Origin: a virus
Taxonomy: Duplodnaviria > Caudoviricetes
IMG/VR virus record: IMGVR_UViG_3300035670_000009
Location: 139,911 to 203,910 of that record
DNA: 64,000 nt
Direction: 5' to 3' (one strand)
The notes below the pieces were generated by a model that was given only the letters and a program-made list of their open reading frames with translations, made no database searches and was not told the origin of the DNA. The position numbers and the translations under genes were made by a program. Positions 36,384 through 41,952 of this stretch are shown one piece after another (the first letter of the stretch is position 1; each line of letters starts with the position of its first letter).

Positions 36384-37193
36384 TCAATTCTTGGGTACGA
36401 GGATGTACGGCTTTCCGTTGATCACAATGGTGCCGCCCAGCTCAACTGAAGTGTCTTTGAACTTGGAATACGGCACCTTACGTTTGCCGTACAGCTCCTG
36501 AATCTCGCGGACATCGCCGTCCTGTGGTTCAGTAACGTTCGGGTCGTAGTAAGGGGCCATAAGGTTGCCGTTGGCCAGGTGCGGCAGACCCAACGCATGA
36601 CCAAGCTCGTGGCAAATCACAGCCACAGCCATATTGAAGTTCCAGTGCTCAGCTTCGTCGTACATCTGGTCAAGCTGAATGCCCTCATGTACGCCGCAGG
36701 GCAGCTCGCTCCAGGCAAGCGTGCCGCCCTTGCTATCCAGGCCGTGCTTCTGCCCTTTTCCCGATCGCGCCAAAATATTGGCTTTCGTTGGATCCTCGAC
36801 GGGCTCGGGCTCGATGTTGCACACGCGCGCCCACTGGCTGAACGCAATATCAAACGCCTGCTTAGCCTGAGCCGTCGTGATGCCGGGCAGCACAATGTCG
36901 GGATGGTAAGTGATCGCCTTGTGCGGCCACTTGCACTCCGTGTCGCCTGCCGAAAAGTTGAAATCGGGCAGGCCGCAACGACGACGTTCAAGCACATGCG
37001 CCGTGGTTTCGTCGACGCGGCCATCCGGATCCAGCCCGTGAAAACGCTGGTACTCGCGAATGGCGCGCGTCAATTCCGCGCCTTTAATCTGCCGAACCTT
37101 TGCCCAGGTTTTAGTACCGAAGTATCCGAACGCGAATAGTTTTCGAAGGATCTCTTCGGTCGGCAGAACGTGATTTGATGGCATCCTTGCCAT
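36384..37193 (-). CDS. Matrixin (M10/MMP-like) zinc metallopeptidase with PG-binding-like prodomain and cysteine switch
   Basis: AIREYQRFHGLDPDGRVDETT (PG-binding-like), RRCGLPD (Cys switch), KW...ITY, HELGHALGLPH, Met-turn LMAPYY and IQELYG. Confidence 0.9.
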   Translation of the reverse strand: MARMPSNHVLPTEEILRKLFAFGYFGTKTWAKVRQIKGAELTRAIREYQRFHGLDPDGRVDETTAHVLERRRCGLPDFNFSAGDTECKWPHKAITYHPDIVLPGITTAQAKQAFDIAFSQWARVCNIEPEPVEDPTKANILARSGKGQKHGLDSKGGTLAWSELPCGVHEGIQLDQMYDEAEHWNFNMAVAVICHELGHALGLPHLANGNLMAPYYDPNVTEPQDGDVREIQELYGKRKVPYSKFKDTSVELGGTIVINGKPYILVPKN

Positions 37194-37222: not shown

Positions 37223-37636
37223 TTAGTCGCCGGGCGGCTTATACATTTCTCCCAGCCACAACAGCTCGTCGACGGTTTCGTCGTCGGCTTCGTCGCTGAG
37301 ATCGTAAACGGCCTCCACGAGCGGATTCTCTGATTGTAACAGTTCTATTGGGCAGTTGTTGCGCCACAGCTCATTGAGCTTGCGCCGCAACCGTACGCTG
37401 CGGATTGGGCCAATGTTGCGCAAGTCGCGCATGTCCAAGCGAATTTCGTTGGACGGGCGCTTTTCGCGGCAGTGGATTATGACCTGCACGATAATTGAAA
37501 TGACCGAGATCACCAGGAGCGGATTGAACGCGTAGCCCTGCGGAGCACGAAACGCGATTTCATCTTGAAGTCGGTTTCGAAGCCGCGTGAGCGCCGGGGA
37601 GTTCTCGATCCGCTCCTGGAGAGCTTCGGGCGTCAT
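37223..37636 (-). CDS. Single-pass membrane protein
   Basis: TM segment FNPLLVISVISIIVQVII. Start reassigned to ATG 37636, just after the upstream stop. Confidence 0.65.
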   Translation of the reverse strand: MTPEALQERIENSPALTRLRNRLQDEIAFRAPQGYAFNPLLVISVISIIVQVIIHCREKRPSNEIRLDMRDLRNIGPIRSVRLRRKLNELWRNNCPIELLQSENPLVEAVYDLSDEADDETVDELLWLGEMYKPPGD

Positions 37637-37637
37637 T

Positions 37638-38003
37638 TCATTCTTTCTCGGCGCGAATGCGCTCAACTGCGATCGCTTCCATATACCGGTACCGCGCGTC
37701 GATCATGGCTTCTTTCACGGCAACGCGTGCCGAGATGTACTTCCAGACGAGCGCCGCATTCACAATGATCACCTGCGCCGCGCCGATCAACGCAGCAAGG
37801 CTTCGGCTAACCGTCTCGGCATCACTGGCGCTAATCCAACCCAGCACCACGCCCACCGCGATGAGATTTGTGACGGCCGAGACGACCATCGTCCAAAACT
37901 CAGGGGTGAACCAATCGGAACCAGCGGGCGCCACCTCGTCGGCAGCCTGTCCCAACTCGCGCAGCTCTTCGCGAATCGACGCAATCGGCTTCTTTGTCGC
38001 CAT
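37638..38003 (-). CDS. Two-TM holin-like protein
   Basis: W.TPEFW followed by two TM helices and a charged C-terminal tail. SD AGGAG. Confidence 0.5.
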   Translation of the reverse strand: MATKKPIASIREELRELGQAADEVAPAGSDWFTPEFWTMVVSAVTNLIAVGVVLGWISASDAETVSRSLAALIGAAQVIIVNAALVWKYISARVAVKEAMIDARYRYMEAIAVERIRAEKE

Positions 38004-39373: not shown

Positions 39374-40507
39374 TTATTTCCTTCCGGGGGAGAACTGCGC
39401 CAGCACGTCGTCGCCGTAACGAGCGATGACCTGGTCAATGAGGTTGGGGCGCTCCGTCTGGCCGCGAATGGCTTTCAGTGCAAGCTGGTGCCGATAGCGC
39501 GGGTCAAGCTGCGCCCGCCACATTTTGTGATTTCGATCGCTGTCGCGGATGAAGTCGCCCCGACGCTTGGCCTCGGTGAGCTGGCTCTTGATGTTCTCGA
39601 AAACCGGCTTGCTGGGGTCGTAAGGAATCGGCTTCTGGATAGCGAGCGGGTCAAGCATCTGTCGCCCCTGATCGAGGTAGACGCTGCCGCCGTCCTTCTC
39701 TAGTTGCTGGATTTTTTTGTAGTAGGCCGGTTCTTCGGACAAGTGATCCTTGGCAATTTCTTTGGCGACTTCTGCATTGTTCGTGTGTTCGCGCTCATGC
39801 TTCTTGCCTTCTGCCAAGGCCTCCGGTGGAAACTGCTCATCGGGCACATGATCCGCCTGGCCGCCGGGCAAGACGTCCAGGACTTTTTCAGCCGCCGCCT
39901 TCAGCTCGCCCCGGCTGGTGGCCGAGTCAAACTTGCTAACGTTGTTGTTACCGAGCACCTTCGCGCGTCGGACAGCCACCGTGATGTGGAACTGATGATC
40001 GCCATTGGGCAGAGCTGACAAACCGTAGCTCTTACGCAAAGCGGCCAACTCTGGGCTGGCGACTTGAATCGCCCAGACGCGGCTGATGCCGTCGATGTTC
40101 TTAGGCGCGAGTTCTTTAACGGGACCAAGGGCGTAGTGAAAATTGTGCCCGCGCTCGTTGATCTTGTTCGCGCCAATTTTGCTGACCTCGTCAGCGGTCA
40201 TCACCGAAATGTGCGCATTCAGCAAATCTGGCTTTACGTCTGGAACGTTAAGGGCACCAGCAAGTGGTAATTCAGCGCCTGGAGCAGTCATGGCGTCGAA
40301 TACGCCGCGCACCAGGGCATTTGGGACCGACAGCAACAGCCAGCCGCTTTTAGAGACGTACAGCCGCCCGGCGAGATAGTGATTGGTCGTCGCCGCGGCA
40401 CCGGTCTTTGAAAGCCAACCGGCCGCGTTTCCAACGGCATAGGCCGGATGAAGCTTGAAACCGGTCGCGTCCCACGCCAAAGGATCGAGAATGGAAAACC
40501 CGTCCAT
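39374..40507 (-). CDS. 2H phosphoesterase fused to an EHT..DHL..YY domain
   Basis: Two H-x-(S/T) motifs (NAHISV, QFHITV) with intervening SPELAALRKSYGL. Then EGKKHEREHTNNAEVAKEIAKDHLSEEPAYYKKI. Confidence 0.75.
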   Translation of the reverse strand: MDGFSILDPLAWDATGFKLHPAYAVGNAAGWLSKTGAAATTNHYLAGRLYVSKSGWLLLSVPNALVRGVFDAMTAPGAELPLAGALNVPDVKPDLLNAHISVMTADEVSKIGANKINERGHNFHYALGPVKELAPKNIDGISRVWAIQVASPELAALRKSYGLSALPNGDHQFHITVAVRRAKVLGNNNVSKFDSATSRGELKAAAEKVLDVLPGGQADHVPDEQFPPEALAEGKKHEREHTNNAEVAKEIAKDHLSEEPAYYKKIQQLEKDGGSVYLDQGRQMLDPLAIQKPIPYDPSKPVFENIKSQLTEAKRRGDFIRDSDRNHKMWRAQLDPRYRHQLALKAIRGQTERPNLIDQVIARYGDDVLAQFSPGRK

Positions 40508-40517
40508 GGCCGCTACC

Positions 40518-41081
40518 TCATTTCAACTGCGAGGGCGGAGACACGGACAAATCAGCGGGCTGCGCGGGTTTCTTGACGGCATCCTGCAGCTCGGCCACCG
40601 GCGTAATGAACGCGAAGAACTGTGGCGCGCCGAAGTGGAGAACGCTGCCGACGCTCACCAGGCACATGACCGGCAACTTGTCTTTGCGCAGCACCGGATA
40701 GACCGCGCGGTAATGAATGCCTTCAATGCCGCGATCGCTTTTGGTCCTGGCCCGGTCGAGGCCCTGAAGATGCTTGTCGCGCAAATAGTCTGGAATAATC
40801 TGCGACAGGCCGTGATCAATCAATTCGCGCTCGGTGTAGCCAGTAATCTCCCAGACTGCGTCGTTGGCAAACAAAACGTCGCCTGATCGGTCACAAACAA
40901 TTACGGCGTCGGCCGAATAGTTCATTATCTTGATCAGCTCGCTTTCGCGCGCGTTCAGCGCAGCGGCGTAACGCCAAAGCAAAATGGCGCACAACGCCGA
41001 CGCAGCCACAGCCCACCACGCGGCGGCGCTGCGCAGTTTTCCAGCGCGTGGTTCAACCATCATGGCGGCGAACATAGTCAT
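40518..41081 (-). CDS. Membrane-anchored stand-alone PAS-domain protein (FixL-like PAS)
   Basis: Start reassigned to ATG 41081 (ATGA coupling). One TM, then SADAVIVCDRSGDVLFANDAVWEITGYTERELI...IIPDYLRDKH...FFAFI. No output domain. Confidence 0.85.
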   Translation of the reverse strand: MTMFAAMMVEPRAGKLRSAAAWWAVAASALCAILLWRYAAALNARESELIKIMNYSADAVIVCDRSGDVLFANDAVWEITGYTERELIDHGLSQIIPDYLRDKHLQGLDRARTKSDRGIEGIHYRAVYPVLRKDKLPVMCLVSVGSVLHFGAPQFFAFITPVAELQDAVKKPAQPADLSVSPPSQLK

Positions 41082-41215
41082 GGCCTGGTTGATGTGCCGG
41101 ATTGCGCACCCGCGACGGCGCGAGCGTGACTGGCTACTGCCGCCGCGGTCGACAGCAACGCCAATGAACAGAGCAGCGTCGCCACCCATGCCGCGGCAGC
41201 CAATGTGTTTCGCAC
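41078..41215 (-). CDS. 45-aa hydrophobic peptide between holin and PAS genes
   Basis: GTG 1 nt after the holin stop. MRNTLAAAAWVATLLCSLALLSTAAAVASHARAVAGAQSGTSTRP. Its TGA overlaps the PAS ATG. Below the ORF-track cutoff. Confidence 0.55.
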   Translation of the reverse strand: MRNTLAAAAWVATLLCSLALLSTAAAVASHARAVAGAQSGTSTRP

Positions 41216-41216
41216 T

Positions 41217-41561
41217 TTACGATCCGCCATTGTCGTTACTCCTATCGTGCTCGTGCGTGATTTTTACCTTAATGCCCGCGCCGGAAAGAACTGACCACAC
41301 GACATCGGTCACCGCTGAGCCGCTCATACCAGCGAACACGCAAATGCCAATCAGCCCATAAATGTTCTCTGATTCTCGGTAGTGCTGGTACCAAAGCAGC
41401 GAAATAGCCAAACCCAGGCAGCCCGCATTCAGCATTGCGCTAAACAACCCAAGCCGGGTCATTTTACGAGAAAACCGGAGATATGTGGCCAGCCCCGCAA
41501 ACGACGACACTCCGAACGCGCTCAAAAACACCCAGAACGGATGAGTCAAATCCATAAACAT
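41217..41561 (-). CDS. Holin-like protein (LydA-type, 3 TM)
   Basis: Start reassigned to 41561 or 41555. Three hydrophobic helices with a SFAGLATYL..AGCLGLAI..ICVFAGMSG pattern and a charged C-terminus. Confidence 0.65.
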   Translation of the reverse strand: MFMDLTHPFWVFLSAFGVSSFAGLATYLRFSRKMTRLGLFSAMLNAGCLGLAISLLWYQHYRESENIYGLIGICVFAGMSGSAVTDVVWSVLSGAGIKVKITHEHDRSNDNGGS

Positions 41562-41597
41562 CCTACTGGCCCCCGGCGCGCTAATTGTGCTGCTGAT

Positions 41598-41840
41598 ATA
41601 CCGCAAGCTCCTGGGATCCCCTACCCACAGGTCCGGCCCTGGAAAACCAGGGTTTAGCGGTGACTTACAAAGGCAAATGTTTGCCCCGTGTGGCATTCAC
41701 CGCGCCTCCAACCGTGTTCACGCCATGCTCTGACCACGGATCCAGCTACCCCGGCAACTTCCATGTTGCCGAAATAGCGCCTAACCGATCGGCCACCACG
41801 ACCAGCTTGCGATATTTGCGCACTTTCGCGCGCAAATACT
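41598..41840 (-). ncRNA. Candidate structured non-coding RNA / leader, family unrecognised
   Basis: Nested helices found by eye: 41804-15 with 41598-609, a 14-bp hairpin at 41745-78, 41697-703 with 41657-63, 41637-52, and a GAAA-capped stem at 41813-38. Mismatches are G-U wobbles on the minus strand. Confidence 0.65.
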
Positions 41841-41952
41841 AATTTATCACGTCGCGACAGGCGGGCGCAAAGCGGGATGTCAAAGAGCAAACAACGGCTG
41901 ACTTATTACAAATAGCGCGAAACGGCAGATTCGACCAGCCCCAAAAAGAGGG

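Follow-up and report, generated by a model that had tools for sequence, protein, structure and literature searches.

A conserved cassette of an uncultured jumbo phage pairs a holin-like membrane protein with a membrane-anchored, FixL-type PAS protein in a proposed sensor-coupled lysis module

We analyzed a stretch of 64,000 nucleotides (hereafter the window), which is the final 64 kb (positions 139,911 to 203,910) of the IMG/VR virus record IMGVR_UViG_3300035670_000009. Three coupled genes on its minus strand encode a holin-like protein with three transmembrane segments (the 3-TM protein), a single-TM peptide and a membrane-anchored PAS protein of the FixL type (Table 1). The cassette is real and is proposed to be a sensor-coupled lysis module, probably a previously undescribed one, in which the PAS protein would tune the triggering of the holin. 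The evidence comes from the gene structure, the heme-pocket residues of the PAS domain, the remote holin homology of the 3-TM family, and the linkage of the 3-TM and PAS genes across phages. The source record is a complete, terminally redundant virus genome of 203,910 bp with 57.7% GC; it belongs to a jumbo phage that encodes a fused beta/beta-prime RNA polymerase and is distant kin of Salmonella phage Arash.

The three coupled open reading frames (ORFs) described in an earlier note, which was made from the sequence by a model, were present as described in both the ORF list and the sequence. The description of the junctions stood in part. The ATGA overlap was found between the peptide and PAS genes (peptide stop codon at 41078-41080, PAS start codon at 41079-41081), and in place of the reported 1-nt gap the peptide gene showed a 14-nt overlap with the 3-TM gene. 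The peptide had been read as 45 aa from GTG 41215, which is not the best start. The ATG at 41230 yields a 50-aa product, has an AGGAG upstream at a spacing of 8 nt, and adds five N-terminal residues (M-x-D-R-K) that are conserved among relatives; the 50-aa form and the 14-nt overlap were adopted because of this AGGAG and the conserved N-terminus. The gene order and the overlaps of the trio were kept in close relatives, and the arrangement is far beyond chance. The reading frames overlapped in the window as well as in the relatives, which is the co-encoding seen with antiholins.

The PAS protein is composed of a TM helix (residues ~17-36), a linker of ~10 residues, the PAS domain (residues ~47-161) and a Pro-rich tail. 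Pfam detected PAS at residues 52-161 (E 2.4e-7, above the cut-off), and also PAS_9 and PAS_8. No kinase or other output domain was detected by Pfam in the 187 residues, the PAS families being the only matches, which bore out the description of a TM-PAS protein without an output domain. When the protein was searched by phmmer against PDB chains, FixL heme domains came first (8js5, E 1.3e-9; also 1y28 and 1dp6; FixL range E 1.3e-9 to 8.5e-6), followed by EcDOS/DosP. The identity to FixL was 27-28%, with the motifs R-x-R-T-x-S-D and hVSVG-type in common. The AlphaFold2 (AF2) model had a pLDDT of 74, and its top Foldseek matches were FixL, the FG214 heme-PAS, DosP and EcDOS, with a probability of 1.00 for FixL, DosP and FG214.

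In FixL, His200 is the proximal heme ligand, Arg220 hydrogen-bonds the bound O2, Arg206 touches a heme propionate, and Ile and Leu residues lie over the distal face (PMC10765370). An alignment by eye had placed a histidine of the phage protein at the position of the heme ligand, and this alignment was reproduced by HMMER: H104 (RDKH) fell on His200 of BjFixL (DRSRH), which the BjFixL 140-270 construct numbers as chain position 61. In the same alignment, R110, I119, R125, V142 and V144 fell on BjFixL Arg206, Ile215, Arg220, Leu236 and Ile238, respectively. H104, R110, R125, V142 and V144 were invariant in 14 relatives with 49-95% identity, I119 being the exception. Among 17 very divergent TM-PAS partners the His was retained in 15, and of the Arg/hydrophobic pocket set only the G-beta Arg was mostly retained in the distant partners. 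Without a bound heme, the invariant pocket set and the retained His would be difficult to account for, and the PAS domain likely binds heme, probably heme b. Judged by its sequence, the protein is a FixL-type sensor domain and not a FixL, as it ends without a histidine-kinase transmitter. A complex prediction that combined the 3-TM and PAS proteins with heme scored 0.01, which is below the mark, and was used neither for nor against the pairing.

The AF2 model of the 3-TM protein (pLDDT 83) showed helices at residues 8-29, 36-64 and 67-92. With its basic first loop (RFSRKMTR) and charged tail (KVKITHEHDRSNDNGGS), the protein shows the small three-helix form with a hydrophilic C-terminus that characterizes holin superfamily III. 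The layout resembles that of a class I holin, for which the topology would be N-out/C-in. More than 190 homologs at 55-99% identity were recovered, and the gene is a core gene of a clade of ~200-kb phages. A profile search of 1.84 billion representatives extended the family to 312 members, 149 of which were scanned with family models. Among these relatives, PHROG holin families were matched by 98/149 (phrog_6384), 27/149 (phrog_785) and 17/149 (phrog_175), and Pfam families of holin superfamily III by 12/149 (PF04550) and 11/149 (PF16083, LydA). The nearest named ESM Atlas clusters to the 3-TM protein were all holin superfamily III of the LydA type (0.90-0.91). Foldseek of the model against AFDB clusters gave weak matches (E at least 0.1), 6 of 30 of which were named 'Holin'. 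The earlier description of the protein as holin-like was supported by its family, whose members match PHROG and Pfam holins. The data suggest that the 3-TM protein is a remote, LydA-like member of holin superfamily III, reached only through its relatives, and it is fairly probable that it functions as a holin.

The linkage of holin and PAS genes, which had been named as a check on the proposal, was present in close and in very distant relatives; in L096 the 3-TM homolog is flanked by an Amidase_2 endolysin and a TM-PAS, an arrangement in favour of the holin reading. Outside the jumbo clade, 19 of 24 loci had a TM-PAS gene directly after the 3-TM gene, in many cases with an overlap, in a sample that is biased by the search pattern. 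This count comprises P0133 and P0136/L011, 3 of 5 divergent IMG/VR loci, 13 of 13 metagenome loci with room for the gene, and 1 of 4 random representatives. The 19 pair loci (P0133, P0136/L011, L094-L096, L097-L105, L107-L110 and L117) belong to phages of 40-62% GC, with an identity to the window of 25-45% for the 3-TM protein and 15-25% for the PAS protein, and the N-terminal TM anchor was conserved in all TM-PAS partners. Of the Pfam families found in 91 neighbouring ORFs, PAS occurred most often, although PHROGs contain hardly any other PAS proteins. A mirror-tree comparison of the 3-TM and PAS proteins gave a rho of 0.43 overall and 0.22 for distant pairs, which is weak and was not used as evidence. 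The recurrent pairing argues for a functional coupling of holin and PAS protein, toward which we lean with some reserve.

In the model that we propose, the 3-TM protein would be a class-I-like superfamily III holin whose gene is linked by translational coupling to those of one or two small membrane partners. The PAS protein would be tethered beside the holin in the inner membrane and would hold heme b via His104, with Arg125 as the ligand-contacting arginine and Arg110 directed to a propionate. Since the PAS protein has no enzymatic or DNA-binding output, a protein-protein contact in or at the membrane would be its only plausible output, and the likeliest target would be the holin encoded immediately upstream, on which it may act either as an antiholin-type or as a pro-holin modulator. 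The PAS conformation, and with it the ease of holin triggering, would shift when O2 (or CO or NO) is bound or released or when the iron changes its redox state, and the lysis time would thereby be matched to the respiratory state of the host. The 50-aa peptide may be a second, constitutive partner. Holins fire early when the proton-motive force falls, including during an aerobic-to-anaerobic shift (PMC10865782). Direct sensing of oxygen would thus be of benefit to phages in redox gradients. Taken as a whole, the reading of the cassette as a lysis-control unit with a heme-PAS-tuned holin is in our judgment evenly balanced between right and wrong.

Several observations weigh against this reading. 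The window 3-TM protein itself had no Pfam or PHROG match at normal thresholds, and reached phrog_6384 only at E 0.016 (residues 6-91); its mean column identity of 69% over 43 sequences is unusually high for a holin. An endolysin gene was found beside the 3-TM gene at only 1 of 16 diverse loci (L096, with the order Amidase_2 endolysin, 3-TM homolog and a TM-PAS carrying the motif DRSRH as in FixL), a 2H-SAK gene rather than lysis genes often follows the holin-PAS pair, and no Phage_lysozyme, SLT, Amidase_2, GH19 or Peptidase_M15_4 domain was found in the 204-kb genome. A scan of the jumbo clade in IMG/VR yielded 80 loci with 46 distinct variants, only 7 of which carried PAS, in each case with a 3-TM protein that shares 80% identity or more with that of the window. 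At one locus (L017:3984-4196) the PAS gene is reduced to 70 aa, consisting of the TM anchor and the first PAS residues, and represents a natural PAS-less allele. With PAS in 7 of 46 variants and the domain lost from L017, the PAS sensor appears dispensable in the jumbo clade. The TM-PAS proteins of L094 and L099 lack the His, and the charges flanking the TM anchor lean slightly to an N-in orientation.

With an N-in orientation, the PAS domain would lie in the periplasm, where a b-type heme would be unusual. A twin-arginine-like RR-x-F/L was present right before the anchor in many TM-PAS proteins (L099, L101, L103, L105, L110, P0002 and P0006-P0008); RR preceded the TM segment in 12 of 32 TM-PAS sequences, and the window has LR (residues 11-17). 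The N-flank was more positive than the C-flank in the RR-bearing members. Export by the twin-arginine translocation (Tat) pathway, leading to a periplasmic PAS domain, is a possibility suggested by these motifs. In its widest form, the proposal would be that the membrane-anchored heme-PAS proteins are a widespread, undescribed family of gas- or redox-sensing antiholins, perhaps periplasmic through Tat-type export, and the first small-molecule sensor domain to gate a holin directly, by which phages of oxic-anoxic gradients would set lysis to the oxygen supply of their host; we offer this only tentatively, as a possible reading that is more doubtful than the model for the window cassette.

One alternative assigns the cassette no role in lysis and takes it for a membrane sensor/effector module of a 'dar-like' late operon with 2H-SAK, a polyvalent and probably virion-delivered protein, acting in superinfection exclusion, in defence or counter-defence, or in the membrane targeting of a packaged enzyme. 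Consistent with this, 2H-SAK lies directly after TM-PAS in the window, and homologs (E 1e-39 to 1e-48) occupy the same position at seven distant loci (L099, L100, L101, L103, L107, L108 and L110); in two of these (L099:4315-7332 and L110:4428-7331) 2H-SAK forms the N-terminus of polyvalent proteins of >1000 aa. The rarity of adjacent endolysins, the strong conservation of the 3-TM protein and a structured leader found throughout the clade also fit such a module. The homology of the 3-TM family points to holins only, however, and the holin-PAS pair occurs without 2H-SAK in L094-L097, L104, L105 and L117. Furthermore, the lydA holin and lydB antiholin genes of phage P1 head the late dar operon, together with virion antirestriction genes and unlinked to the endolysin (PMC9025707). 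Because the P1 pair heads such an operon, the synteny with 2H-SAK is compatible with lysis, and we consider a non-lysis module unlikely.

Similarly improbable is a second alternative, in which the 3-TM protein is a holin with an accessory membrane partner, and the PAS domain serves as a dimerisation or scaffold domain, with no cofactor or with another ligand, and senses neither gas nor redox state. The evidence for it lies in what the coupled slot contains, since this slot holds different membrane proteins by lineage. At four loci (L092:3805-4326, L093:3799-4188, L112:418-771 and L114:3342-3689) a conserved multi-TM protein of 115-173 aa without a Pfam match occupies the slot after the 3-TM gene, and an overlapping ORF for an equivalent TM peptide of 43-73 aa was found over the 3' end of the 3-TM gene at every one of ~88 jumbo-clade loci, with or without PAS, and is the sole partner in most jumbo phages. 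The L017 allele retains the TM anchor only, the two PAS domains of L094 and L099 have lost the His, and the peptide is possibly related to the TM anchor of the PAS protein (hhalign of the two profiles 83%, E 8.5e-6, 27 columns). Taken together, the L017 allele and the weak profile similarity hint at TM-PAS genes as a source of small TM peptides. Set against this alternative are the retention of the His in 15 of 17 divergent partners despite an identity of ~15-25%, and the full FixL pocket set, which is invariant in the subclade of the window. The filling of the coupled slot in PAS-less loci by a multi-TM protein or a small TM peptide is the pattern expected of a holin-modulator position. The peptide itself carries the motif R-x-x-L-S-x-A-A-W ... 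C ... LL..SA.AA..H and had no Pfam or PHROG match. A lipoprotein reading of it was rejected since the Cys is not conserved, and a reading as a secreted, arbitrium-like signalling peptide was considered and found no support.

A third alternative, that the kinase-less FixL-type domain is a host-signalling decoy, which would pair with PAS histidine kinases of the host as a heterodimer and so dampen or imitate the host's oxygen response, the adjacency to the holin being incidental, draws on the specific FixL likeness of the window PAS (27-28% identity and common motifs), on the absence of an output domain and on the dimeric state of FixL heme domains (PMC10765370), but is very improbable, as the pairing with the 3-TM protein holds over phages of 40-62% GC and hence of different hosts, the TM anchor is conserved in all partners, and the divergent partners are FixL-like only in fold and His, which argues for a long-standing phage family and not for repeated capture from hosts.

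Besides the three cassette genes, Table 1 lists the neighbouring features. The structured leader is multi-branched, with a folding z-score of -3.7, and RNAalifold predicted 86 pairs, 19 of them with double compensatory changes. By nhmmer profile, the leader was located directly before the 3-TM gene in 88 of 88 jumbo-clade loci, including PAS-less ones, and in 0 of 21 non-jumbo loci. The leader region had no match in Rfam, and it is preceded by the conserved sequences TCTTTGACA ... TGATAAATT. A scan for sigma-70 promoters found none, and terminator-like sites were not meaningfully above shuffled sequences.

Table 1. Positions of the cassette genes and of neighbouring features in the window
Feature	Position	Strand	Remarks
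3-TM holin-like protein	41217-41561	minus	114 aa; possibly 112 aa from ATG 41555
Single-TM peptide	41078-41230	minus	50 aa, ATG 41230
Membrane-anchored FixL-type PAS protein	40518-41081	minus	187 aa
Structured leader	41562-41952, core ~41600-41837	minus	directly upstream of the 3-TM gene
2H-SAK phosphoesterase + DUF5661 protein	39374-40507	minus	PF22547 2.3e-10, PF18905 3.5e-8; 10 nt downstream of the PAS gene
PG_binding_1 + Peptidase_M10 (matrixin-like) protein	36384-37193	minus	Pfam; 3.3 kb downstream of the cassette

The PG_binding_1 and Peptidase_M10 protein may be an unconventional endolysin; it is a candidate because no other protein of the genome was found to carry a peptidoglycan-binding domain, PG_binding_1 having this single match. 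Just upstream of the peptidase gene, the gene for a 147-aa single-TM protein (37223-37666) overlaps that for a 2-TM protein of 121 aa (37638-38003), and both products could be further lysis proteins. The 2-TM ORF was disfavoured as an alternative holin, having a sub-threshold match to Phage_holin_10 (E 0.0012) and ESM values of only 0.78-0.79. In relatives, a gene for a Volactin protein (archaeal actin-like, PF25216) was observed a few genes upstream of the cassette (L002:1112-2116, L004:2172-3176 and L006:4089-5123).

Several studies yielded metagenomes with near-identical cassette DNA, and these came from subsurface, soil, freshwater and aquatic sources. A scan of GTDB genome contigs with the 3-TM profile recovered no relatives of the 3-TM protein. 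Among 50,697 deposited phage genome records, BLASTN with the region gave no match, nor did tblastn with the 3-TM and PAS proteins of the window, the PAS protein of L096 or P0135.

Compared with known lysis regulators, the cassette comes close to LydA/LydB of phage P1, where LydB lacks both a predicted TM domain and a PAS domain, and no ligand of it is known (PMC9025707). Both have a holin of superfamily III (PF16083 is matched by relatives of the window protein), a modulator gene right after it, and then further genes, in P1 for virion-delivered anti-defence proteins and here for 2H-SAK. Unlike LydB, the partner in the cassette is membrane-anchored and bears a sensor of the heme-PAS type, and an additional 50-aa TM peptide is encoded between the two. 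No similarity of the PAS protein to LydB was detected, as it had no PHROG match, and neither the PAS protein nor the peptide had a PHROG or Pfam match to known antiholins, PAS being the only domain found. Antiholins do not form one homologous family, and the missing homology therefore has no bearing on function.

In phage T4, the antiholins RI and RIII set the triggering of holin T, a class III holin with one TM segment, during lysis inhibition, and the RI domain is periplasmic and senses superinfection. The proposed model is similar in that holin triggering would follow an environmental cue through the soluble sensory domain of a distinct protein tethered to the membrane; it differs in that there is no homology and in that the cue would be a gas or the redox state and not superinfection. 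The lambda antiholin S107 arises from an alternative start of the S105 gene, and its one extra Lys senses the membrane potential. The cassette has in common with S105/S107 a class I-like holin of three TM segments with a charged C-terminal tail and, presumably, a modulator on the same transcript, whereas its modulator is a separate protein with a sensor domain. In FixL and DosP, the PAS domain is coupled to a histidine kinase or to a cyclic di-GMP enzyme. The phage protein resembles FixL and EcDOS/DosP in the PAS fold, in the proximal His of F-alpha and in the equivalents of Arg206, Arg220, Ile215, Leu236 and Ile238, and is distinguished from them by ending after the PAS domain and by its N-terminal TM anchor. 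No published description of a phage holin, antiholin or lysis cassette with PAS, or of a phage heme-PAS oxygen sensor, was found in the full-text literature. The new element is probably the ligand-binding sensory input on a holin-antiholin-type pair, such pairs themselves being known.

The timing of lysis decides the burst size and fitness of a phage. Holin regulators known so far take their cue from the membrane potential, as does lambda S107, or from superinfection, as do RI and RIII of T4. If the proposed model is true, a heme-PAS partner would add the direct chemical sensing of O2, CO, NO or redox state to holin control, and would give a mechanistic handle on the premature firing of holins in cells that are turning anoxic. 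The module is both compact, needing no more than two or three small genes, and portable between phages whose hosts differ widely; a gas-responsive lysis switch would be a potential use. PAS sensors, which are near absent from the gene catalogues of cultured phages, recur in these putative lysis modules of uncultured phages.

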